Shown: positions 4,421 to 17,386, counted from the first letter of the stretch. The stretch is DNA of 28,054 nt from an uncultured Bacilli bacterium (GCA_947629285.1 CANRDA010000001.1:1-28054); one strand, 5' to 3'. A program made the numbers and translations. Notes: generated from the sequence alone by a model not told the origin.

Positions 4421-7400
4421 ATGTTAGACGAAAAAAATATAATATTGGATTAGATATCGGTACTACTTCAGTTGGTTGGGCAGTAGTAGATCCTGAAACC
4501 TATAAAATTATGAATAAAGCAAATAAACAATTATGGGGTGTTAGACTATTCGATGAAGCCATTACTGCAGAAGGTAGAAGAGGTTTTAGAACAAGCAGGA
4601 AAAGATATGATAGAAGAAGAAAAAGAATTAAATTATTACAAAATGAATTTAGAGATGAAATAAATAAAGTCGATCCTAACTTCTTTAAAAAATTAAAAGA
4701 AAGTTTTTACAATGAATCAGATACAAAGAACAAAACAATTATATTATCAAAAGAAGAAAAAAAGCAAATTAAAGAATATAATAAAAAATATAAAACTATA
4801 TATCATCTTAGAGAAAGACTAATAAATAATCCTGAAAAAGAGGATATAAGACTTGTTTATTTAGCAATACACCACATTATAAAATATAGAGGTAATTTCT
4901 TATATAATAGTGATAGTTTTAACGTTGATAATTTAAATATATCTGAAAAGTTAAATGAAATATTTAATAATATATATTCACTTTGTGATGAATTAGAATT
5001 AAATATAGATATTTTAAATGATAATTTTTATCAAGTATTAGAAAATGCTTTAATTGAAAAGTCTAATACGGATAAAAAAGTACTCATTAAAGCATCATTA
5101 AATGATAATATTTATAAGGACTTTACAAATGAATTTATTAAATTAATATTAGGTAATAAATTTTCAATATCAAAATTATTTAATATTGAACTTGATGAAG
5201 ATATAAATATTAGTTTCAAAAGTTCAGAATACGATGATAATTGCTCTAAACTTGAAAAATCTTTAGGGGATAAAATAGAAGTATTAAACAATTTAAAAGA
5301 ATTATATAATATTTTGTTTTTAAAAAGTTTATTTAAAAATAGTAATAATACTAATATATCTTCATTAATGGTTAAAAGATATAACGAACATGCAAATGAT
5401 TTAAAATTTTTAAAACAATTATTAAAATACGATGATAAATTATATAAAATTTTCTTTAAAGATAATTTGTCAGATAAAAAAGATGAGTTTTGTATTTATA
5501 GAAAATATGTGAATAATGCTTTATCTTATGAGGAATTTAAAAAAGAATTAAATAAAGCCTTAGAAATAATATTTAATTATAATATCGATGAAAACCTTAT
5601 AGATGAATATACAAGTTACTTTAAAGAAAGAATTGATGAAAACTTATTTTTACCTAGGATTACTGATTCAGATAATGGTAAATATCCATATCAATTAAAT
5701 AAAGTTGAGTTAGAAAAAATAATAGAAAATCAAGGAAAATACTATCCTTTCTTAAAACAAACAGTAAAAGATTCAAATAAAGAAGTTTATAAATTAGTTA
5801 AACTTTTAACATTTAAAATACCATATTATATTGGACCATTAAATAATACTACTAATAAAAAAGGTATTGTTAATAAAAACGCATGGGCAGTAAAAAAAGA
5901 TAATAAAATACAAGTAACACCTTATAATTTTGATGAAATAATAGATAAAGAAGCATCTGCAGAATTATTTATTACTAGAATGATTTCACATTGTACTTAT
6001 TTACTTAATGAATATGCACTACCTAGTAATTCGATATTATATTGTAAATATAAAGTGATGAATGAGTTAAAACAGATAAAGGTAATGAATAGAAAAATTC
6101 CAAATTCTTTACAGCACACAATCTTTGATGAGTTATTTTTAAAGACTAATTCATTTATAACTGAAAGAAAATTTATTAATTATTTAAAAGGTACTAATGA
6201 ATATAATATGTATGATAATTTGAATATAGAAGGTTATTCTAGTGATAAAAAGTTTGCTAATAATATGCAATCATATGTAGATTTCTTTGGTGAAGATGGG
6301 ATATTTAAAGATACTGATTATAAAATTAATGATGCTGAAGAAATAATTAGATGGATAACTATTTTTGAGGATAAAGATATCTTAGAGACAAAAGTGCGAA
6401 AAGAATATCCAAAATTAAATGACCGTGCAGTAAAATTAATTCTATCAAAAAGATATACTGGCTGGGGAAATCTATCAGAAAAGTTATTAAATGGTATATA
6501 TTATAAAGATAAAGAATCCAATATAAATAAATCTATAATGGATTTAATGTATGAAACAGAAGATAATTTTATGCAAATAATATTTAAAAAAGAATATGGC
6601 TTTCAAGATAAAATTGATGAGATAAACTTATCTAATGTTAATAATAAACTAGATTATTCTATAGTAGATGCACTTGCAACCTCTCCATCTACCAAAAGAG
6701 CAATTTATCAATCATTAAAAATAGTAAAAGAAATTACTGATTATATGGGATATGACCCAGAAAACATAATGATTGAAATGTCCAGAGGGGAGGATAAAGT
6801 AAAATCAAGAAAAGATACAAAAAAGACTTACTTAAATAAATTATATGATAAATTTAAAAAAGATATAAATGATTATAATAAATTAAAGAAAGAATTAAAC
6901 TCTTTTGATAAAATTGATAGTCAAAAGTTATTCTTATATTTTATCCAAGAGGGGAAAAGTCTATATTCGAGAAAACCACTTAATATAGATAATTTGGAAG
7001 AATATGAAATTGACCACATTATTCCAAGAACACTTATAAAAGATGATTCTATCGAGAATAAAGCACTAGTATTAAGAAGTGAAAATCATGAAAAAGCCGC
7101 AAATTTCGTACTACCTTCTAATTTTAGAACTAGAGATATGATTAATTGGTGGATACATCTTAAAGATTGTAATTTAATTACTAGTAAAAAATTTAACAAT
7201 CTATGTAGAAATTATTATACTGAAAAAGATATAGAAGGTTTCATCAATAGACAGTTAGTTGAAACAAGGCAGATAACTAAACATGTAGCAAGTATTTTAA
7301 ATAATTTTTATAAAGATACTAAAATCGTTTATTTAAACGCTGAGCTATCAAGCAATTATAGAAAGAAATTTGAATTATTTAAATACCGTGATTTAAATGA

Positions 7401-8478
7401 TTATCACCATGCTCATGATGCTTATTTAGCAGCAGTTATAGGTGAATATAAAGAGAAATATTTAAATACAACTACTGATTTTGAAAAATTAAAAGAAATT
7501 ACTAAAAAACTTATTGAAGAAAAAAAATATAATGAATTAAGTTATGGATATGTAATTAATAGTATTAGTAATGATGTAAGTCTTTTTGATGAAGATACAG
7601 GTGAAATTAAATTTGATGCAGATTTATTCAATGAGACAGTAAAAGAAACATTATATAGAAATGATATATTAATTAGTAAAAAAACTGAAATTAAAACTGG
7701 AGAGTTTTATAATCAAACTAAAAGCAAAAAAGGAAATAAAGGAGTTCCTTTAAAAGAAAATCTACCAACGGAATTATATGGTTCATATACAAGTTTAAAT
7801 CCTTCATATTCAGTTTTAGTAAAATATACTAAGAAAAATAAAACTGAACAAAGATTAATTGGCGTTCCTATATATTATAGTATTAAAAATAACAATGATA
7901 ACAATATACTTATTAATTATATTGCGAGTTTGTTACAGATTGATGATAAAAATAGTATTGAAATTATAAAAGATAAAATACCTTTTTATACAATTTTAGA
8001 TTGGGATGGTCAAATTTGTTCTTTAGTAGGTGCGACAGATAAAGTAGAAGTATGTAATGCGAAAGAATTTAAAATTAATAAAGAAAATCAAATAAAATGG
8101 AAATATACTTTAAACAGGCTATTTAATAAAAATATAAATAGTATAGATGATGTTATATATAACAATCAATTAAATGAAGTTGCCAATTATATAATTGAAA
8201 AAATTGAAACTGACTATAAACTATATGAGAATCTTTTACCAGAAATAAAAGAGTTCTTAAGTGATGATGTTTTAAATAATATAACTATTGATACAAAAGA
8301 AAAAACATTACTTGAATTGTTTAAACTATTAAAATTTAATAGTGCAACTGCTAATTTAAAATGCTTAGACAGTAACTTGTCCTTAGCATTCGGAAAAAAG
8401 CACAGTAGAATTATAAGTCATTTCACAATCATTAATAAATCTGTAACTGGATTAAGGGAACATAGAAATGAGTTTTAG
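4421..8478 (+). CDS. cas9: Type II-A Cas9, 1352 aa if repaired; as written it has a 1-nt frameshift in the A7 tract at 4431-4437
   Basis: SD AAGGAGGA (4406-4413) precedes ATG 4421. RuvC-I YNIGLDIGTTSVGWAV starts at 4438, in the frame of the 4510-8478 ORF. Also present: Arg-rich bridge helix RRGFRTSRKRYDRRRKR, RuvC-II IEMSR, HNH EIDHIIP...N...N, RuvC-III HHAHDAYL. Confidence 0.95.
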
Positions 8479-9340
8479 GACTGTTGTTATATCAAAACAA
8501 TCTAGGATAAGTTATAAAAACAGATTTCTAGTAGTTAAACAAGAAAATGATGAAAAATATATTCATTTATCAGAAATAGATACAATTATAGTCGATTCTA
8601 TAGCTGTATCTATTTCCTTATACTTGTTAAAAGAATTATGCGATAATAAAATAAATATAATTTTTTGTGATGAAAAACATAATCCATATGGAGAATTAAT
8701 GTCTCTTTATTCAAGTCATAATTCTAGTAAAAAAATAATATTACAAAGTAAATGGAATAATAAATTAAAAGATGAATTATGGGAAAATATAATAATAAAT
8801 AAAATAACTAATCAAGCCATTTTATTACAAAAAATAAAATCTGATAATTATAATTTATTATTAGAATATGCTAAAGACGTAAAAATAGGGGATAAAACAA
8901 ATAGAGAAGGACATGCTGCAAAAGTATACTTTAATTCATTATTTACTAAAAAGTTTGTAAGAAATGAAAATGATGATATAAATTCGGCACTAAATTATGG
9001 ATATGCAGTATTACTTTCTACATTTAATAAAGAAATAGTAAATAATGGTTACAAAACAGAACTTGGAATACATCATAAAAATGAATTTAATCCATTTAAT
9101 TTAACTTGTGATTTAATGGAACCTTTTAGGATAGTTATTGATAGTTTTGTGTATTATAATCAAACAAGAGAGTTTAATAGTGAATATAAGATGGATTTGG
9201 TAAATATATTTAATGCTAAATACGACTATTTAGGTAAAAAATATACATTAAAAGATATAATAAAATTATATGTAAAAAATATATTTGATTTTATAGAAAA
9301 TAATAAAGAGTATAAAGGATTTAGTATTTATGAGGGATAG
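8468..9340 (+). CDS. cas1: CRISPR-associated endonuclease Cas1 (type II)
   Basis: MSFRTVVISK, NREGHAAKVYF, NSALNYGYAVL, GIHHKNEFNPFNLTCDLMEPFR. Confidence 0.96.
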   Translation: MSFRTVVISKQSRISYKNRFLVVKQENDEKYIHLSEIDTIIVDSIAVSISLYLLKELCDNKINIIFCDEKHNPYGELMSLYSSHNSSKKIILQSKWNNKLKDELWENIIINKITNQAILLQKIKSDNYNLLLEYAKDVKIGDKTNREGHAAKVYFNSLFTKKFVRNENDDINSALNYGYAVLLSTFNKEIVNNGYKTELGIHHKNEFNPFNLTCDLMEPFRIVIDSFVYYNQTREFNSEYKMDLVNIFNAKYDYLGKKYTLKDIIKLYVKNIFDFIENNKEYKGFSIYEG

Positions 9341-9650
9341 AGCAATGAGGACAATAGTGTTTTTTGATTTACCTAATGTTTATGCAAAAGATAGAAGAAA
9401 TTATAATTTATTTAAAAAATTTCTAACAAATGAAGGATTTTTAATGTTACAAGAATCAGTTTATTCTAAAATTGTATTAAATTCAGTTCAATCCAATTTG
9501 TTGATTGAACGAGTAAAAAAGAACGCACCAAAAAAAGGTATTATTCAATTGATGACAATAACAGAAAAACAATATTCCCAAATAATTTATGTAATAGGGG
9601 AGTCCAACACTAAAATAATAGATAGTGAAGATAGGTTAGTGGTATTATGA
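9330..9650 (+). CDS. cas2: CRISPR-associated Cas2
   Basis: MRTIVFFDLP...FLMLQESVYSK...MTITEKQY; follows cas1. Confidence 0.95.
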   Translation: MRDRAMRTIVFFDLPNVYAKDRRNYNLFKKFLTNEGFLMLQESVYSKIVLNSVQSNLLIERVKKNAPKKGIIQLMTITEKQYSQIIYVIGESNTKIIDSEDRLVVL

Positions 9651-10324
9651 AATTTAATTTTAGTTATCTCGATAATGATGTGCTTATTGATAATAATAAA
9701 ATACTATCGATTGAAGTAGAAAATAAAAATTACTTTTATAGAATTGTCAATGACTTAAATACAATTTATAACGGAAATATTAGTGATGACTTAACGATTT
9801 ATGATAATGAAAATAATGAAATAGATTTAACTAATAAGATAAGTGTTATGATTGATTATTTTAATATAGATTTTAACTCGAAAAAATTAATTAATACTCT
9901 TTCTAAATCTATAATTGAAAATATAGATATTGAAGATTTAAATAAAATCAAAATTAATTATAAAAAAATAAAAAATATTATTTCTAAATCATTAAATGAA
10001 TATGATTTTTCAATATCATTCAGTGATGAATTAGAAATGGAAAATCTTTTTAAAATATTAAAAATTAGTATTAATAAAAAGGATTCATTAATAGATAATT
10101 TATTTCTTATTATTGATTTAGAAAATAAATTTAAATTAAATAAGTTATTAGTTTTTATAAATTTAAAACAATACTTGTCTAAAGAAGAATTAATTGAATT
10201 CTATAAATATTGTATATATAATAATGTTATGATTATTTTAGTAGATTCACAAACATATGGAACAACTATAAAATATGAAAAAAAGTTAATAATAGATAGT
10301 AATTTAGATGAATATTTGTTATAA
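9647..10324 (+). CDS. csn2: Type II-A CRISPR-associated Csn2
   Basis: 225 aa after cas2; KLLVFINLKQYLSKEEL and C-terminal IIDSNLDEY resemble Csn2. Confidence 0.88.
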   Translation: MKFNFSYLDNDVLIDNNKILSIEVENKNYFYRIVNDLNTIYNGNISDDLTIYDNENNEIDLTNKISVMIDYFNIDFNSKKLINTLSKSIIENIDIEDLNKIKINYKKIKNIISKSLNEYDFSISFSDELEMENLFKILKISINKKDSLIDNLFLIIDLENKFKLNKLLVFINLKQYLSKEELIEFYKYCIYNNVMIILVDSQTYGTTIKYEKKLIIDSNLDEYLL

Positions 10325-10415
10325 TCAATATAGTAATATAGATTTTACCATTTAAAATATAAAATTTTCTATGTATTTTATATAACGTTCTAAAATCTTA
10401 ACAAATTAATTTGAG
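10317..10415 (+). promoter_or_regulatory. CRISPR leader with extended -10 and leader-anchoring end
   Basis: TGtTATAAT at 10317-10325; AT-rich; ends in ATTTGAG directly before repeat 1, a known type II-A leader-end motif. Confidence 0.8.
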
Positions 10416-11045
10416 GTTTTAGATCTATGTTATTTTAAATGGTATTAAAACAAGTTAATACGACTATACTTTCACTGATAGGTTTTAGATCTATGTTATT
10501 TTAAATGGTATTAAAACATAGTTGTACTTATAAAGAGATGCCTACTAGTTTTAGATCTATGTTATTTTAAATGGTATTAAAACCTGCCATCATCAGGCGT
10601 ATCTCCATGTTCAGTTTTAGATCTATGTTATTTTAAATGGTATTAAAACTGTTACATCCAACTGTAGAGGCGTTATTAAGTTTTAGATCTATGTTATTTT
10701 AAATGGTATTAAAACAATTATAAAAAAGGCATCTAAATGGATAGTGTTTTAGATCTATGTTATTTTAAATGGTATTAAAACTTATCTAAATTAGTAGGTG
10801 TTAGTCCACTAGTTTTAGATCTATGTTATTTTAAATGGTATTAAAACTTGTAACAGCAGTGTAAACAGTTAATCCCAGTTTTAGATCTATGTTATTTTAA
10901 ATGGTATTAAAACTTTCACATCGGCACTACCCTCTAATATACAGTTTTAGATCTATGTTATTTTAAATGGTATTAAAACTTAAATAATGTTAATAACGAA
11001 TTATCGGCAGTTTTAGATCTATATTATTTTAAAAGGAAGATTGAT
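10416..11045 (+). CRISPR. CRISPR array: 9 identical 36-nt repeats GTTTTAGATCTATGTTATTTTAAATGGTATTAAAAC plus a degenerate terminal repeat; 9 spacers of 30 nt
   Basis: Repeats start at 10416, 10482, 10548, 10614, 10680, 10746, 10812, 10878, 10944 (66-nt period). The terminal repeat at 11010 is GTTTTAGATCTATATTATTTTAAAAGGAAGATTGAT. Confidence 0.99.
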
Positions 11046-12078: not shown

Positions 12079-12278
12079 TTAAATCACCCAATAATATTAT
12101 TTACTGATAAATTAAATATATACGTAATTTTTTATATTAAAGAAATAAATGATAGAGTATGAATATAAATTTATATTTTGAAACATAGGTTGAACATAGA
12201 GAAGAATATATAATTTAAATAAATATAATATGAGCAATTAGTAGTATTAAATACATATCTACTTTTATTCCATCGAGA

Positions 12279-12307
12279 AGTTAACATAATTGAAACTTGA
12301 CGGAAGA
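12279..12307 (-). other. Left attachment site: dif-like, 7-bp spacer
   Basis: Minus strand TCTTCCGTCAA-GTTTCAA-TTATGTTAACT. Confidence 0.85.
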
Positions 12308-12309
12308 CT

Positions 12310-12525
12310 TTATATAATTCTTTTTTTATTATTTGTATTTCCAACTATATAATCTATGCTTGTTTCATAAAAATTTGATAATGTTATTAATAAATCTATA
12401 GGAATTGTTCTCTTTCCTGTTTCATATAATCCATATTGTTGTCTCGTTATTTTTAAAATGTTTGCAATATTTTCTTGCTTTAAGTCTTTATCTTCTCTTA
12501 AATCTCTTAATCTTTTAAAATACAT
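12310..12525 (-). CDS. XRE-family HTH prophage repressor (71 aa)
   Basis: MYFKRLRDLREDKDLKQENIANILKITRQQYGLYETGKRTIPIDLLITLSNFYETSIDYIVG; SD AGGAAGTG before ATG 12525 (the track start at 12582 is probably too long); divergent from the phage operon. Confidence 0.9.
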   Translation of the reverse strand: MYFKRLRDLREDKDLKQENIANILKITRQQYGLYETGKRTIPIDLLITLSNFYETSIDYIVGNTNNKKRII

Positions 12526-12571
12526 TTTTTCACTTCCTAATATAATTTTATATGAATTTATTTGAATTCTC

Positions 12572-12629
12572 TTGACAAGCATTCATTTAAATGCTAAAAT
12601 GTATATAGTGAAGCATTCATTTGAATGTT
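12572..12629 (+). promoter_or_regulatory. Phage rightward promoter with two putative repressor operators
   Basis: TTGACA (12572)-17 nt-TAAAAT (12595). Near-identical quasi-palindromes AAGCATTCATTTAAATGCT (12577-12595) and AAGCATTCATTTGAATGTT (12611-12629). Confidence 0.75.
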
Positions 12630-12641
12630 TCACGTGAAACA
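12626..12641. promoter_or_regulatory. parS: parS site (ParB/Spo0J binding consensus)
   Basis: TGTTTCACGTGAAACA, a perfect 16-bp palindrome matching the bacterial parS consensus TGTTNCACGTGAAACA. Confidence 0.85.
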
Positions 12642-12736
12642 TCTGTTTCAACCTTATGCAAGGTAGTTAATTCCTAGCAACTAACTATCTTGCACCTACT
12701 CATTTTTATGAGTAGAATTGAAAGGAGAGTAGGAAA

Positions 12737-12940
12737 ATGAATAAAAATGTTATTAAAAAGATTTTAAAAGAATTAAGAAAGAATAATGAAATTACTATTA
12801 GTTATTGCCCTAGTTTAGAAGAATGTGACTATTTGTATAATCAAGGTGTTAATGTTATTATGGTGAATTCAATTAGATATTGTATTTTAGATAATAAATA
12901 TTCTTACTTAGTTAATTCTTATAAATATGTAAAGGAGTAG
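12737..12940 (+). CDS. Prophage hypothetical protein (67 aa)
   Basis: SD AAGGAG; first gene after the promoter; no recognised motif. Confidence 0.7.
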   Translation: MNKNVIKKILKELRKNNEITISYCPSLEECDYLYNQGVNVIMVNSIRYCILDNKYSYLVNSYKYVKE

Positions 12941-12945
12941 GTATT

Positions 12946-13038
12946 ATGGAAGAAAAAAATAAAAGGTTATATAAGATAATGTTTATTGTATGTATGGTTA
13001 CGAGTTTATTAATTATATTAATGCCTTTATTATTTTAG
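12946..13038 (+). CDS. 30-aa single-TM peptide
   Basis: MEEKNKRLYKIMFIVCMVTSLLIILMPLLF*; SD AAGGAG 8 nt upstream. An overlapping 58-aa ORF (12990-13166) may be its frameshifted continuation. Confidence 0.55.
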   Translation: MEEKNKRLYKIMFIVCMVTSLLIILMPLLF

Positions 13039-13073
13039 TTTTAGTTCTATGTCTTTATAAATGGTATTATTGG
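13038..13073 (+). repeat. Solitary CRISPR-repeat-like unit inside the prophage
   Basis: GTTTTAGTTCTATGTCTTTATAAATGGTATTATTGG versus the host repeat: 28/32 identical over the first 32 nt, 28/36 overall. Confidence 0.85.
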
Positions 13074-13155
13074 AAGAAAAAATATAAAAATGCTAGGTAT
13101 ATTATAAGAATATATGAAATTAAATTATATGATTTACAGAAGGGAAGATTTAAAA

Positions 13156-13443
13156 ATGGAAAATAAAATGGAAATATTTATTACAAATTTAGATAAAAGA
13201 AATATAACAAATGAAAAGACTGGTGAGATTTCAAACTGGTGTATGGTTACTTATTTCATTAAGAAAGAAGACACTGACAGGTCAAAAGGTAATGCACAGT
13301 TGAGTTGCTATTGTAAAGCAAATGCTTTCAATGATTTAGAAAAATATATGTATAAGTGGTCAAATGCTAATATTACTCAAACTGTTGAGGGTAATCGTAT
13401 TAAATTAAAGATAAAAAGTGTAGATAATGTTGTGGTTTCTTAA
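13156..13443 (+). CDS. Probable ssDNA-binding protein (pV-like), 95 aa
   Basis: Size, beta-rich sequence, NEKTGEISNW hairpin-like motif and position before the coat genes. Start at 13156 preferred over 13114. Function inferred. Confidence 0.6.
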   Translation: MENKMEIFITNLDKRNITNEKTGEISNWCMVTYFIKKEDTDRSKGNAQLSCYCKANAFNDLEKYMYKWSNANITQTVEGNRIKLKIKSVDNVVVS

Positions 13444-13639
13444 CGAATATATAATTGATAATAAATTATATTTTAAGATAGTGAAATGTCCATTTGGATA
13501 TTCTGACAATTACTACTTAGTTAATACTTATGTATTATCTAAGAATAGATTTATTGAATATAGGAATTATATAAACTCTATAAAAATTCCTGAAAAAACT
13601 ATGTTTAAAAAATTGCTAGGGTTTTTTAATAAATTATAA
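13427..13639 (+). CDS. Prophage hypothetical protein (70 aa)
   Basis: Overlaps the SSB stop; no recognised motif. Confidence 0.55.
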   Translation: MLWFLNEYIIDNKLYFKIVKCPFGYSDNYYLVNTYVLSKNRFIEYRNYINSIKIPEKTMFKKLLGFFNKL

Positions 13640-13657
13640 TTGAAAGGAGAGTGTATC

Positions 13658-13825
13658 ATGCAAGCAGTTATTAGTGCGTTAACTGAAAGTGTAACGTCAA
13701 CTGTAATGTTCGGAACTCTAGCAGAGATAGTGCCATTTATTGTAACACTATTACCATTTAGTTTAGGTTTATATTTCTTACGTAAACTTGTTAAAGGTGC
13801 CGGAACAGGTAAAGTTAGATTTTAA
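13658..13825 (+). CDS. Major coat protein (pVIII-like), 55 aa
   Basis: MQAVISALTESVTSTVMFGTLAEIVPFIVTLLPFSLGLYFLRKLVKGAGTGKVRF: amphipathic N-terminus, one TM, basic C-terminus; SD AAGGAG at 13644. Confidence 0.8.
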   Translation: MQAVISALTESVTSTVMFGTLAEIVPFIVTLLPFSLGLYFLRKLVKGAGTGKVRF

Positions 13826-13873
13826 TAATTGGAGCATCTTGCTCCTTTTATTATATTAGAAAGGATAGATTTT

Positions 13874-13987
13874 ATGTTTGATATTTCAATGGAATTTATG
13901 AAAGATTTAGTAGATTTAATAGTCCCAGTAATGGCTATATATATTGTATTTGATTTATGTGGAAGTTTATTATTTGGAAAGAAGTGA
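13874..13987 (+). CDS. Minor coat protein (pVII/pIX-like), 37 aa
   Basis: MFDISMEFMKDLVDLIVPVMAIYIVFDLCGSLLFGKK*; SD AAGGA; below the ORF-track cutoff. Confidence 0.65.
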   Translation: MFDISMEFMKDLVDLIVPVMAIYIVFDLCGSLLFGKK

Positions 13988-13991
13988 TTTT

Positions 13992-14336
13992 GTGATTTAT
14001 GTACCTAATTTAGAAAATTATAAATGTGTTGTAGTTCAAGATAAAGATACTATAAGAGCATATCATACAAGACCTTATAATCCAAGTTATAATAACTCAA
14101 TTCAAGTACAGTATACTGATTTTTATGTCAATTCAAATTATATGTCAAAAGAGGGTTCTCAAAATTTTAATTATAATAGTAGTTTGCCAAACTGTATAAG
14201 TCAAGATAATTTAACAAATGAGGTTTATTATAGGAATGATTTTGATAGAATACTTATTATATTTATAATATTTGCTATTTTTTGCATTTTAATACCTTTA
14301 AAAGTATTTATGAGATTGTTTAGGAGGTTTAACTAG
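13992..14336 (+). CDS. Virion/membrane protein with C-terminal TM (114 aa)
   Basis: GTG start at 13992 in the frame of the track ORF 13944-14336, avoiding overlap with the 37-aa gene; C-terminal ILIIFIIFAIFCILIPLKVFMRLFRR. Confidence 0.65.
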   Translation: MIYVPNLENYKCVVVQDKDTIRAYHTRPYNPSYNNSIQVQYTDFYVNSNYMSKEGSQNFNYNSSLPNCISQDNLTNEVYYRNDFDRILIIFIIFAIFCILIPLKVFMRLFRRFN

Positions 14337-14337
14337 T

Positions 14338-15840
14338 ATGAAAATTTTAAAAAGAATAATAGTAGGTGTAGCTATAGGTACTATATTAATGCTTATTAAA
14401 TCATCTAATGTTTTTGCTTATGATGCTGAAACATATTACATTAAATTTGAAAATGTTGAGAATTATGTCTTGGAGCATATTCCTAATAATGATAAATGGA
14501 AAGATTTTGATTTAAACAATTATCCTTATGTATTAGTTGAATTAGTTAATGGCAGTAATAATAATAAAGGAATTATGGTTTTCTTTTTTAAATCTTTAGA
14601 CCAATTTAATTCTTTATATATTGAAAAAAATCAATATGGTATTTCTATTAAATCTGGTACTGATTATTGTGGCTACACTTATTATTCTATTAAAGATAGT
14701 TACTATCAAGATTTAGGTTGCAAAGGCGGTTCTGGTGGTTATATTTCTACTTATTTTAGTACTAATTATAATTACAAAGATGCAATTATTACTAATTTTG
14801 ACATCTCAAAATTGACTATAAATAATACTTCTGATGGTGCTCATACAGTTGAAGAGGTAAATCTATTAATGAATAAGATGGACTTTTCTGCTTATTTAAA
14901 TCCAATATATTATTATATTTATTCTTATGATAAAGATTTCAAATTAGTTGATAGTAAAAAATGTACTGATAAGGAGAATTACTGTAATTTACAATCTTAT
15001 AAAGATAATGTTAAATATGTTAAAGTTTCTTATTATTTAGATAAAATTATTGGTAATAATTTAGATATTATAAGTGGACATACTTATGATTTTAATACTA
15101 GTTTTATTAATTCTTATGACGATGTAACTGTTTATGATGCATCTGCTTATTATTTTTATAATGATGATGCTATTAATGTAGATTATGCTTATTTGCTCAC
15201 ACCTAAACAATCTCATAGTTCAGTTGATGAAAAATTTGATTATAAGTTTCAAATTCCCATATCATATGACTATGATAGTGCTAAATTATACCGTTTAGAT
15301 GTTACTTATGAATTTAACGAGTATGTACCAACTGAGATTGTTATACCTCCAACTGTTAGTTATTCAGATATTACAATTGGTGGTGGAGATGTAGACCCAC
15401 CTGTTGACCCTGAACCTGAACCTGAAGACCCTAACAAAGAGATTAATGATAAATTAAATGGTGTTAATGATAAACTTGACGATTTAAATAGTAGTATTAC
15501 TGATAGTAATGTTGATACAGGTAGTGCTGGTGGTTTCTTTAATGATTTTGAAGATAAAGATTTTGGATTATCCGATATAGTTAAAGCCCCTTTAGGTGTA
15601 ATAAATTCAATAACAACTGGTTCTTGTGAAGATATAGAGGTTAGTTTACCTTTTGTTAATAAAAAAATTACAATTCCTTGTATGATGCCTATTTATCAAA
15701 AACATTTTATGCCAGTTTTAGTTATTTATCAAACTATTACGGGTGGTTTAATTTCTTATTGGATATGTGTGCAATTATTGGAAATGGTAAAGGGATTTAA
15801 AGACCCTGACAAAGACGAAATACAGGTGGTGGACGTATGA
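14338..15840 (+). CDS. Adsorption protein (pIII-like), 500 aa
   Basis: Signal peptide (…SSNVFA), Tyr/Asn-rich receptor-binding region, Pro/acidic linker GGGDVDPPVDPEPEPEDP, coiled segment, C-terminal hydrophobic anchor; largest gene, followed by a pVI-like gene. Confidence 0.8.
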   Translation: MKILKRIIVGVAIGTILMLIKSSNVFAYDAETYYIKFENVENYVLEHIPNNDKWKDFDLNNYPYVLVELVNGSNNNKGIMVFFFKSLDQFNSLYIEKNQYGISIKSGTDYCGYTYYSIKDSYYQDLGCKGGSGGYISTYFSTNYNYKDAIITNFDISKLTINNTSDGAHTVEEVNLLMNKMDFSAYLNPIYYYIYSYDKDFKLVDSKKCTDKENYCNLQSYKDNVKYVKVSYYLDKIIGNNLDIISGHTYDFNTSFINSYDDVTVYDASAYYFYNDDAINVDYAYLLTPKQSHSSVDEKFDYKFQIPISYDYDSAKLYRLDVTYEFNEYVPTEIVIPPTVSYSDITIGGGDVDPPVDPEPEPEDPNKEINDKLNGVNDKLDDLNSSITDSNVDTGSAGGFFNDFEDKDFGLSDIVKAPLGVINSITTGSCEDIEVSLPFVNKKITIPCMMPIYQKHFMPVLVIYQTITGGLISYWICVQLLEMVKGFKDPDKDEIQVVDV

Positions 15841-16136
15841 TTAATGCTATAATTCAAGGAATTTTCTCTTTAATAATGGGCTTGGTAGATATTGTATTAA
15901 AACCTATTGATTTATTAATTGAGAGTGTTCTTCCTGACGTATCTCAAGGTTTATCTTTTGTAGGTCAATTATTTAATATAATAAGTCAAGGCTTATCGTG
16001 GGCTGTAAATGCTAGTGGCTTGCATAGTGGTGTACTTTCATTTTTAGTATTATTTATGACATTTAAATTAACAGTACCAGTTACTGTTAGTGCGATTAAA
16101 AAAGCGATTAAATGGTATAATGCTTTGAAGATTTAG
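15837..16136 (+). CDS. Minor coat protein (pVI-like), 99 aa
   Basis: Hydrophobic, about 100 aa, ATGA-coupled to pIII and upstream of pI. Confidence 0.75.
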   Translation: MINAIIQGIFSLIMGLVDIVLKPIDLLIESVLPDVSQGLSFVGQLFNIISQGLSWAVNASGLHSGVLSFLVLFMTFKLTVPVTVSAIKKAIKWYNALKI

Positions 16137-16187
16137 TTTTCGTGAGTGCTATATATATAGCACCACGAAAACGAAAGGAGAATTTAT

Positions 16188-16253
16188 ATGGAAATAGATT
16201 TTGAATTTTGGGACGATTTAGATTTAGAAAAGGACGTTGAAAAATGTTATTGA
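16188..16253 (+). CDS. 21-aa acidic micro-ORF
   Basis: MEIDFEFWDDLDLEKDVEKCY*; SD AAGGAG 7 nt upstream; overlaps the pI start by 10 nt. Confidence 0.45.
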   Translation: MEIDFEFWDDLDLEKDVEKCY

Positions 16254-16891
16254 TTTTTATAATTATAGGTATAGTATTCTTTTTTTGGAGATTTAGAAAA
16301 ACAAAAATAAAATGGAAAACCTTTTTTAAAAAAGGTTTTGCACCTGTACGTGGTAGATTTGGTATTTATTGCTACTGTGGTAAGCAGGGTAGTGGGAAGA
16401 CTTATAGTGCAGTAGAATTTTTATTACATAATACTGATTTGCCAATATATAGTAATGTATCTACTATTAAGGGTATAGATTATACATATTTTAGTGGTTT
16501 TGACGAATTATTAAAATTAAAGGATAAGACTGATTGTATTATCTTTTATGACGAAATATTTACTGCACTTACTCGTTCTAGTAGAATGAATACAGACGTT
16601 TTAGATTTTCTATCTCAAATGAGAAAGAGACGTATTATATTTATTACTACTGCTCAAGAGTGGTTAGAGATTAATATGACATTAAGGAGATACTGTAGAT
16701 TTCAAATAGAATGTAATATGCGTAATATATTCGGATTAGGTATATTAATTAAGCATTGTTATGATGCTGAGCAATTAAAATGGTCTCAAGAAGATAACGA
16801 GTATATAGCACCTCTAATATCGACAACTATCTCAAAATGTAATTTATATGTAGCAAATAGTTATGATACATTCGAGCAAATAAAAACTTAA
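16244..16891 (+). CDS. Zot/pI-like morphogenesis ATPase with N-terminal TM
   Basis: N-terminal TM, Walker A GKQGSGKT, Walker B CIIFYDE, LSQMRKRR, TTAQ; the inovirus hallmark gene. Confidence 0.92.
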   Translation: MLLIFIIIGIVFFFWRFRKTKIKWKTFFKKGFAPVRGRFGIYCYCGKQGSGKTYSAVEFLLHNTDLPIYSNVSTIKGIDYTYFSGFDELLKLKDKTDCIIFYDEIFTALTRSSRMNTDVLDFLSQMRKRRIIFITTAQEWLEINMTLRRYCRFQIECNMRNIFGLGILIKHCYDAEQLKWSQEDNEYIAPLISTTISKCNLYVANSYDTFEQIKT

Positions 16892-17386
16892 TTTTTTTGC
16901 CATACTTTTTTAAATAACTAAAAAAAAGTATGTACTATACTATGAGAGTATTTTCGATTAATTTTGCTTTAGCAAAATTAATTGAAAATACTTAATCCGC
17001 GAGGGTTAGAACTCTAATGAACGCGATTTTCAGTACCATATATAATGCTTATGTTATCAGTTTTTAATAAAAAATAAAATTTAAACTTGTTTAAATTATA
17101 TTTTTTAGCAACAGTAGAAAGGGTTCACGCGTGGGGCTAACTTAAAATCGCGTTGGAATTTAATTAGAATTAACAAAGTGTAAAATAATTTTTTCTATTG
17201 GGTTTCACCCAATAAAAAAAATTATTCCACAGGTTCTTAGGGTGTAACCCTAAGTAGGTCGTAGGACAAAGTCCTACATACGATAAACAAGTATAGTAAT
17301 GGGTGCGTTTTAGCACGGTAATTGCACACTACGACTAATGCAATTACTGTGTCAAGTGTCAAATATAGAAAAGGAGTAGGTAAAAT
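16892..17386 (+). other. Phage intergenic region: hairpins, probable packaging signal and single-strand origin, and double-strand origin
   Basis: Hairpins at 16901-16932, 16948-16991, about 17184-17226, 17236-17254, 17261-17277 and 17318-17347. The last has ACTACGAC in its loop. Confidence 0.75.

Follow-up and report, generated by a model that had tools for sequence, protein, structure and literature searches.

Phage genomes that are kept as episomes may be handed on by active partition through a ParB-type centromere, as in P1 (parABS) and N15 (sopAB), both of which bring their own ParA, ParB and centromere. Lin and Grossman are said to have found in 1998 that a chromosomal parS site stabilizes an unstable plasmid on which it is carried. 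Stabilization of an unstable plasmid by a single perfect parS together with parAB is described in PMC4368675. Phage phi29 of Bacillus subtilis, a 19-kb linear, protein-primed, lytic podovirus, has five parS sites and Spo0A boxes and, as far as it is summarized in PMC2731898 (citing Meijer et al. 2005), uses Spo0J for entrapment in the spore. For many generations of their hosts, filamentous phages are maintained as small circles, and how the circle is inherited has rarely been asked. Among them, CTXphi and VGJphi are integrative mobile elements exploiting Xer recombination (IMEX), and we found no report of a host-type parS in filamentous phages, including those of the CTXphi/VGJphi type, in the open-access literature. 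Here, we describe an inovirus-like prophage in a 28,054-nt stretch of DNA from an uncultured Bacilli bacterium (GCA_947629285.1, CANRDA010000001.1:1-28054; the whole stretch is called the window in the following) that carries a perfect parS of the host type.

The element has the general make-up of CTXphi and VGJphi, i.e., no integrase, a location at dif, genes for a repressor, a Rep of the rolling-circle type and a Zot-like ATPase, and a replicative form that occurs as an episome; unlike theirs, its host is a monoderm, AT-rich, spore-forming member of the Bacillota. It resembles phi29, as far as the summary of that system goes, in that a host-type parS is found on a phage of a spore former with a Spo0J-type system, with no parB match among the main open reading frames (ORFs) of the element, and the proposed benefit, inheritance or forespore capture of the non-integrated phage genome, would be of the same kind. 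In contrast to phi29, the phages described here are circular filamentous phages of 3.9 to 5.9 kb (single-stranded DNA and double-stranded replicative form) with a single parS and no Spo0A box seen by the promoter (neither TGTCGAA nor TTCGACA was found on reading the sequence of 12540-12740), and two of their lineages integrate at dif and have a parS that overlaps a repressor operator. As in the parS plasmids, one 16-bp site on a small circle would be enough to recruit the chromosomal ParABS system, which is the mechanism we propose for the replicative form; those plasmids are laboratory constructs, whereas the arrangement here is natural, recurrent and conserved in phages. With P1 and N15, the phage would share the active partition of an episomal genome via a ParB-type centromere, but its main ORFs have no ParA or ParB match, and its site is that of the host consensus.

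The site, TGTTTCACGTGAAACA at 12626-12641, agrees with the consensus TGTTNCACGTGAAACA in 16 of 16 positions and is the only match in the window with up to three mismatches. A preliminary description of the window had reported this perfect site, its distance of about 25 nt from the −10 box of the phage promoter and an overlap of 4 nt with the second operator (O2). The first two statements were borne out, the distance from TAAAAT to the first base of parS being exactly 25 nt; the overlap is real, but for the 16-mer, it comprises only the first two parS bases, and an extension of parS to AATG...CATT is needed to bring it to 4 nt.

The window is contig C1 of a metagenome-assembled genome (MAG; 874 kb in 86 contigs, 62% complete), and the sequencing runs that contain its sequence are rabbit-gut metagenomes; database labels of relatives read uncultured Bacilli or Tenericutes. 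Mapping of the parS matches in the MAG, as had been suggested along with the first description, revealed that the host uses exactly this parS: eight perfect and three near-perfect sites (one or two mismatches) form a non-coding array of 1.07 kb (C2:14225-15298, corresponding to L006:9926-10999) that directly follows dnaA-dnaN-recF-gyrB-gyrA and precedes tadA-dnaX. The sequence of the prophage site is the same as that of the eight perfect array sites, and beyond array and prophage, no site with up to two mismatches was found in the assembled 62% of the genome. In the congeneric genome G065 (94% complete), every site with at most one mismatch lies within one 0.8-kb array, and perfect parS sites are present in 80 of the 120 family genomes that are at least 90% complete, with one tight array per genome among the sites listed (in G032, 12 sites with a spacing of ~79 bp). 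At the base composition of the assembly (26% GC), arithmetic predicts ~2e-4 perfect sites in 874 kb versus the nine present (eight in the origin array and one in the prophage), and therefore, the prophage site is not a chance match; a chance origin was rejected on base composition and on the recurrence of the site in relatives. The parS arrays of the host and its relatives often break assemblies, and candidate off-origin sites on other mobile elements (G119:C47 and C83; G032:C53) were discarded since they are the gyrA or tadA-dnaX ends of an origin array split by the assembly.

The right end of the prophage rebuilds a dif-like 28-mer, the left end retains one arm and the core, and in G065, the same flanking genes enclose an empty dif. 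Furthermore, the GC skew changes from ~+0.2 to ~−0.2 at 18-19 kb, and genes on the plus strand to the left converge there with genes on the minus strand to the right. Together with a circular junction in contig L079, these findings confirm the earlier proposal that the prophage sits at dif and the replication terminus. L079, which comes from another sample, contains the same phage (99.4-99.7% identical) including parS and joins window position 12272 directly to 18128, as expected for an attP-type circular junction (attR to attL). The element thus shows all traits of an IMEX: it is integrase-less, has dif-like flanks, an empty dif in a relative and a terminus location, and its circular junction is seen. 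Compared to the window, L079 is devoid of ~165 nt (12772-12934), and most of the first early ORF (12737-12940) is gone, apparently by recombination between two similar regions of ribosome-binding site (RBS) and start codon.

Among the ten main ORFs of the element, there was no Pfam or PHROG match to ParA or ParB families (four short ORFs, 12990-13166, 13640-13825, 13829-13987 and 17922-18122, were scanned against one of the two libraries only), and therefore, the element appears to encode neither ParA nor ParB. Genomes of the host family have two ParB_N proteins (in G065, at C2:292350 and C2:309892), one of ~295 amino acids adjacent to ParA and the other a long paralog of 374-542 amino acids, and a canonical parA-parB operon and SMC were found in G065 and two other family genomes. 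The only ParB found in the assembled 62% of the MAG is the long paralog (C40:2271-3899, L007), which adjoins gidA-gidB and has ParB_N and HTH_ParB domains, a GERRYKA box and a ~300-amino-acid linker rich in P, Q and S. Hence, the expectation that the host encodes ParB holds for the genus, with parA-parB and SMC, and in the assembled part of the MAG only as far as the long gidB-linked paralog. The latter may be Noc-like since a Noc-binding-site-like sequence, ATTTCCCGGGAAAT, occurs in four copies in the MAG that are all on the origin contig, two of them within the parS array; in the window, no copy was found within two mismatches. Both this MAG and relatives have genes for SMC, Spo0A (Spo0A_C) and SpoIIGA, and spoIIM and spoIVB lie within the window, as had been noticed before. 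Judged from its Spo0A_C, SpoIIGA, SpoIIM and SpoIVB genes, the host qualifies as an endospore former.

A conservation of parS in related inoviruses, which had been named as a check on its significance, was found in two ways, with the position unchanged in a distant lineage and as a separate gain, elsewhere in the genome, in a clade of 3.9-kb phages. Phages of the distant lineage (lineage B, with the window phage as lineage A) have an XRE protein of 76 amino acids that is 79-82% identical to that of the window and a perfect parS in the corresponding place (...CATTCATTTGAATGTTTCACGTGAAACAT...) in 13 of 13 contigs examined (L318-L327 and L331-L333), which come from many samples and contain three XRE variants. 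In a further variant (L234/L235; XRE 85% identical), parS is kept in 15 of 16 positions, with a central mismatch (CACATG). In L318, L234 and L332, the regulatory DNA upstream of parS shares 76-77% identity with the window, and Zot of the lineage B representative compared (L234) is only 33% identical to that of the window. Some lineage B contigs are integrated beside a dif-like site with host genes as flanks, from which the hosts were inferred, and in others (L324, L332 and L333), the sequence is circularly permuted, Rep coming after XRE.

The second occurrence was revealed by a search with the Zot protein, which gave 57 loci, among them 13 contigs of 3.4-4.06 kb with one perfect parS each (lineage C). 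These contigs, several of which are labelled human-gut metagenome and one of which has an assembly coverage of 258x, form one clade (support 99/96) with the window phage outside. Eleven of the 13 have end overlaps of 31-77 nt, typical of circular molecules, and annotation of one contig, L041, showed it to be a complete phage genome of 3.9 kb. No XRE homolog was found in the 13 contigs by tblastn, and the 3.9-kb contigs gave no dif-like site with up to six mismatches to the 28-mer or up to one mismatch to the 12-nt arm. In these phages, parS is cleanly inserted, with the T-tract of the coat gene terminator on one side and the RBS of the next gene, AGAAAGGA, on the other, and sister and outgroup phages have the same terminator-RBS junction without parS. 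Over 479 alignment columns, the identity within the lineage has a mean of 89% and a minimum of 79%, and AA, parS and T make up the longest stretch free of variation (19 nt), whereas no more than 52% of the columns in the upstream part are invariant; for the gene that follows parS, four types replace each other. Gut metagenomes contain complete circular inovirus-like genomes (L021-L031, L035, L038 and L041) that, with only 3.8-4.0 kb, rank among the smallest of phages.

The nearest GenBank relatives, the bajarodino viruses from rodent faeces (PQ006174.1 and others), are similar to the window phage in genome size, gene order and Zot (34-39% identical). The same holds in genome size and gene order for pRGI00483 (HG796331.1, L228; 3915 nt), a related mini-inovirus deposited as a "plasmid," whose coat region is ~80% identical over 78 nt. 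In contrast to the phages described here, the three GenBank records checked have no parS-like site within three mismatches. That a phage carries parS is as a general idea not new, since canonical parS occurs in at least 119 unrelated contigs of IMG/VR. This number comes from a pattern scan with the perfect bare parS, and a scan for TTGAATGTTTCACRTGAAACA gave 83 contigs (loci covered, L105-L184 and L236-L314); none of the contigs of either scan encodes relatives of this phage, and many have the appearance of larger phages or of plasmid-like elements, with parS lying inside coding sequence in some. Several recurrent IMG/VR families have an extended palindrome, GAATGTTTCACGTGAAACATTC, sometimes within coding sequence. 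A protein search of IMG/VR with the 500-amino-acid protein, Rep and Zot gave no relatives. What is new is the type of phage (tiny inoviruses with single-stranded DNA and a replicative form, including dif-integrating ones), the recurrence at two positions and the overlap with a repressor operator.

The common denominator of both placements is a double-stranded host-type parS on a small phage circle without a ParA or ParB match in the main ORFs. Episomal forms evidently exist, judging from the junction in L079, the permuted contigs of lineage B and the end overlaps of the 3.9-kb contigs. On balance, we consider it somewhat probable that parS is a host centromere captured by the phage for ParB-dependent inheritance of its episomal replicative form. 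In this model, host ParB (a Spo0J-type, cytidine triphosphate-dependent clamp) would load at the single parS on the double-stranded replicative form, and the ParB-parS complex would couple the circle of 4 to 6 kb to the segregation apparatus of the host, through partition driven by ParA/Soj, through clustering together with the origin array that ParB coats, or through both. The episome would thereby be passed to both daughter cells and, in sporulating cells, carried into the forespore together with the origin region; forespore capture is a plausible extension of partition in spore-forming hosts. The interpretation that came with the first description, which included such a partition, is supported with regard to the parS type of the host, the conservation in related phages, the place at dif and the terminus, and the sporulation genes. 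If a bare 16-bp host centromere suffices, it would be the most economical viral partition device known, with no genes and one site, and the idea of spore entrapment known from phi29 would be extended to single-stranded DNA phages and to uncultured, small-genome, spore-forming gut bacteria. Furthermore, a host-type parS without a parB gene would be a simple sequence signature to link uncultured episomal phages to ParB-bearing hosts.

However, several points weigh against a captured centromere. Small replicons of the rolling-circle type mostly have many copies per cell and may do without active partition. A canonical parA-parB operon was found in the congener but not in the MAG, as far as the latter is assembled (62%), and the attP-type junction in L079 could equally be produced by tandem prophages. 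One XRE sequence is common to many of the lineage B contigs, which are near copies of each other, and therefore, the number of independent comparisons is four XRE variants, not thirteen contigs. In the two lineages that have XRE, parS is tied to the early promoter and the operator, which would fit a role in regulation just as well. Among 22 related loci from GTDB genomes, none was found to have a site with two or fewer mismatches, and parS was also not found in the related elements of G014, G032 and G119. Since most related elements do without parS, including the closest XRE modules (93-94% identical) and the second element of the MAG, it is dispensable for the phage family. From this absence in most relatives and the two separate placements, parS is an accessory feature that was gained at least twice and kept where present. 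The second element of the MAG, C85:4642-5286, has a pIII-like protein whose N-terminal part is 59-69% identical to that of the window phage, and no parS was found in it within three mismatches.

How the site is placed relative to the repressor leads to a more elaborate version of the captured centromere. The two operators, O1 and O2, have CATTCAnnnGAATG in common and no resemblance to parS. Modules of XRE, promoter, O1 and O2 exist without parS in L082/L083 (XRE 93% identical) and L232 (94%), in L094-L098 (84%; same locus in a related host, O1 and O2 kept) and in a chromosomal copy by addAB (L084-L093), and in blastn comparisons, the similarity of L094 and L082 to the window breaks off precisely where parS starts (12626 and 12627). 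Hence, parS as an operator of the XRE repressor was rejected on the grounds of these modules (XRE 84-94% identical) with the same operators and no parS and of the different sequence of O1 and O2; by these comparisons, the palindrome is not simply a repressor site, which would have undermined the first interpretation. Because parS abuts O2 and shares bases with it, repressor bound to O2 probably limits the loading of ParB at parS in the prophage integrated at dif, and the tight abutment conserved in lineages A and B suggests that binding of repressor and of ParB is mutually exclusive. From here, one may imagine a repressor-gated centromere: XRE on O2 would mask parS in the lysogen, and upon derepression, ParB would load on the excised or replicating circle, which would be partitioned and packed into forespores, with centromere piracy being a recurrent means of maintenance in the smallest filamentous phages known. 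This full scenario is tentative, and we would rather not expect all of it to hold. If repressor and ParB do exclude each other, the prophage at dif would be kept from acting as a centromere at the terminus, and if gating is true, the overlap of the two sites would couple the segregation of the episome to the control of lysogeny. Naturally occurring instances of a perfect parS at the terminus could be used to ask how ParB/SMC loading stays restricted to the origin, and the same instances could reveal whether a transcription factor can gate a centromere.

ParB may, instead, act on transcription. The site covers approximately positions +19 to +34 of the early transcript, and ParB bound there or clamps spreading from it might damp or time the early operon; alternatively, competition of ParB and XRE at O2 might link phage expression to the cell cycle or the ParB level. 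The close juxtaposition with −10 box and O2 is in line with such a role, being kept in two lineages whose regulatory DNA is ~76% identical, but it may have been inherited by lineages A and B with a single ancestral module rather than selected repeatedly. Moreover, ParB of the B. subtilis type is a weak silencer, and in the 3.9-kb clade, which has no XRE repressor, parS stands behind a terminator and is still invariant. There is a precedent in Pseudomonas aeruginosa, in which chromosomal ParB represses promoters adjacent to parS3 and parS4 (PMC5521831). Taken together, we regard a regulatory site as unlikely, although it is the rival to be taken most seriously.

A different target would be the host itself: loading of ParB/SMC at the terminus, or titration of ParB by many copies of the replicative form, could alter chromosome organisation, division or sporulation to the benefit of the phage. 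Prophages with a perfect parS are indeed found at dif in the window, L080, L318-L322 and L331, whereas native sites are otherwise restricted to the single origin array. However, the 3.9-kb phages keep parS without integrating, an ectopic parS close to the terminus is expected to be a cost to the host rather than a benefit, and the overlap with O2 suggests that the site is masked in the lysogen. An action on the host is, therefore, very unlikely in our view.

Even less probable is that the identity with parS is incidental and that the sequence serves as part of a nucleic acid structure or operator, i.e., a 5′ hairpin of the mRNA, a hairpin in single-stranded DNA or an extended operator. The outer 5-bp arms of O2 do covary among relatives with a conserved core (GTGAA/TTCAC, GTAAT/ATTAC, GTAAA/TTTAC and CAAAG/CTTTG in a comparison of the modules of the window, L082, L232, L094, L084 and L318), which points to a hairpin conserved at the 5′ end of the early mRNA, and in parS-bearing variants, the left parS half would double as the 3′ arm of this hairpin. 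The predicted fold of the 5′ untranslated region (12607-12745) is unusually stable (−46.4 kcal/mol; z = −6.9). However, covariation accounts for the TTCAC arm only and not for the whole 16-mer, the parS hairpin by itself has little stability (−4.2 kcal/mol, equalled by 16 of 200 shuffled sequences), modules with the same operators, whose sequence differs from parS, do without it, and the same 16-mer recurs in the 3.9-kb clade outside of this context. The last rival, a neutral passenger that arrived by chance or by recombination with host origin DNA, would agree with the many relatives without parS and with the mismatch in L234/L235, but it is the least probable of all and already disfavoured by the comparative data, with an expectation by chance of ~1e-6 per 5-kb genome, two separate placements, no host origin sequence flanking parS and an invariant site where neighbouring columns vary.

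The features of the prophage and its control region are compiled in Table 1. Small early genes are also among its contents, and the GC-richer non-coding stretch is probably the region of the replication origin.

Table 1. Prophage features, with positions counted from the first letter of the window
Feature	Position	Strand	Remarks
Inovirus-like prophage (IMEX), without integrase	12272-18141	+	~5.85 kb; Zot-like ATPase, rolling-circle replication Rep, coat-like and pIII-like proteins; synteny with >50 related elements
attL	12272-12304	.	Common core GAGAAGTTAACATAAT and divergent phage-side arm
XRE-family repressor, 71 amino acids	12310-12525	-	Pfam HTH_3, E = 3.5e-10; ATG at 12525, RBS AGGAAGTGA; 763 homologs
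Early promoter	12572-12600	+	TTGACA at 12572-12577, 17-nt spacer, TG-n-TAAAAT with TAAAAT at 12595-12600; 11/12; kept in homologous modules
Operator O1, GCATTCATTTAAATGC	12579-12594	.	Between −35 and −10; kept in all XRE-module relatives
Operator O2	12608-12633	.	Core CATTCATTTGAATG at 12614-12627; extended inverted repeat GTGAAG...TTTCAC; right arm is left parS half
Motif GTGAAGCA	12608-12615	.	Counterpart of TGTTTCAA on opposite side of parS
parS, host-type	12626-12641	.	Identical to 8 perfect origin-array sites; position kept in lineage B phages
Half-site-like TGTTTCAA	12644-12651	.	7/8; complementary to right parS half
Major-coat-like protein	13640-13825	+	One transmembrane segment; C-terminus ...GKVRF
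Putative adsorption (pIII-like) protein, 500 amino acids	14338-15840	+	C-terminal part kept across family; no Pfam or PHROG match
Zot/pI-like assembly ATPase, 215 amino acids	16244-16891	+	Pfam AAA/Zot; PHROG 197 Zot-like; 34-39% identical to bajarodino inovirus Zot
GC-richer non-coding stretch	16900-17370	+	Strong inverted repeats; I21, 22-nt arms, 95% complementary; I2, 33-nt arms
Rolling-circle Rep (Rep_OBD)	17387-17935	+	Pfam PF01719, E = 4e-19
attR, reconstituted host dif AGTTAACATAATATATATTGTCGGATAT	18109-18141	.	dif-like 28-mer at 18114-18141

Relatives of the repressor also occur outside of complete phages. The XRE protein of L084-L093 (P0014) is 88% identical to the phage repressor and has the same layout of promoter, O1 and O2 in a non-phage chromosomal context; its gene adjoins addAB-like helicase-nuclease genes and would control the gene of a large secreted protein. 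In L328 (5534-6499), L329 and L330, four small XRE-family genes lie at the equivalent locus between ZIP and spoIIM on the side of dif, with no phage structural genes, and may be remnants of successive IMEX integrations.

The window also contains a type II-A CRISPR-Cas (clustered regularly interspaced short palindromic repeats) system with cas9, cas1, cas2 and csn2 at 4510-11041, 1.2 kb from the prophage. Its array of 36-nt repeats covers 10412-11041, and a repeat-like 36-mer is found inside the phage at 13034-13069.
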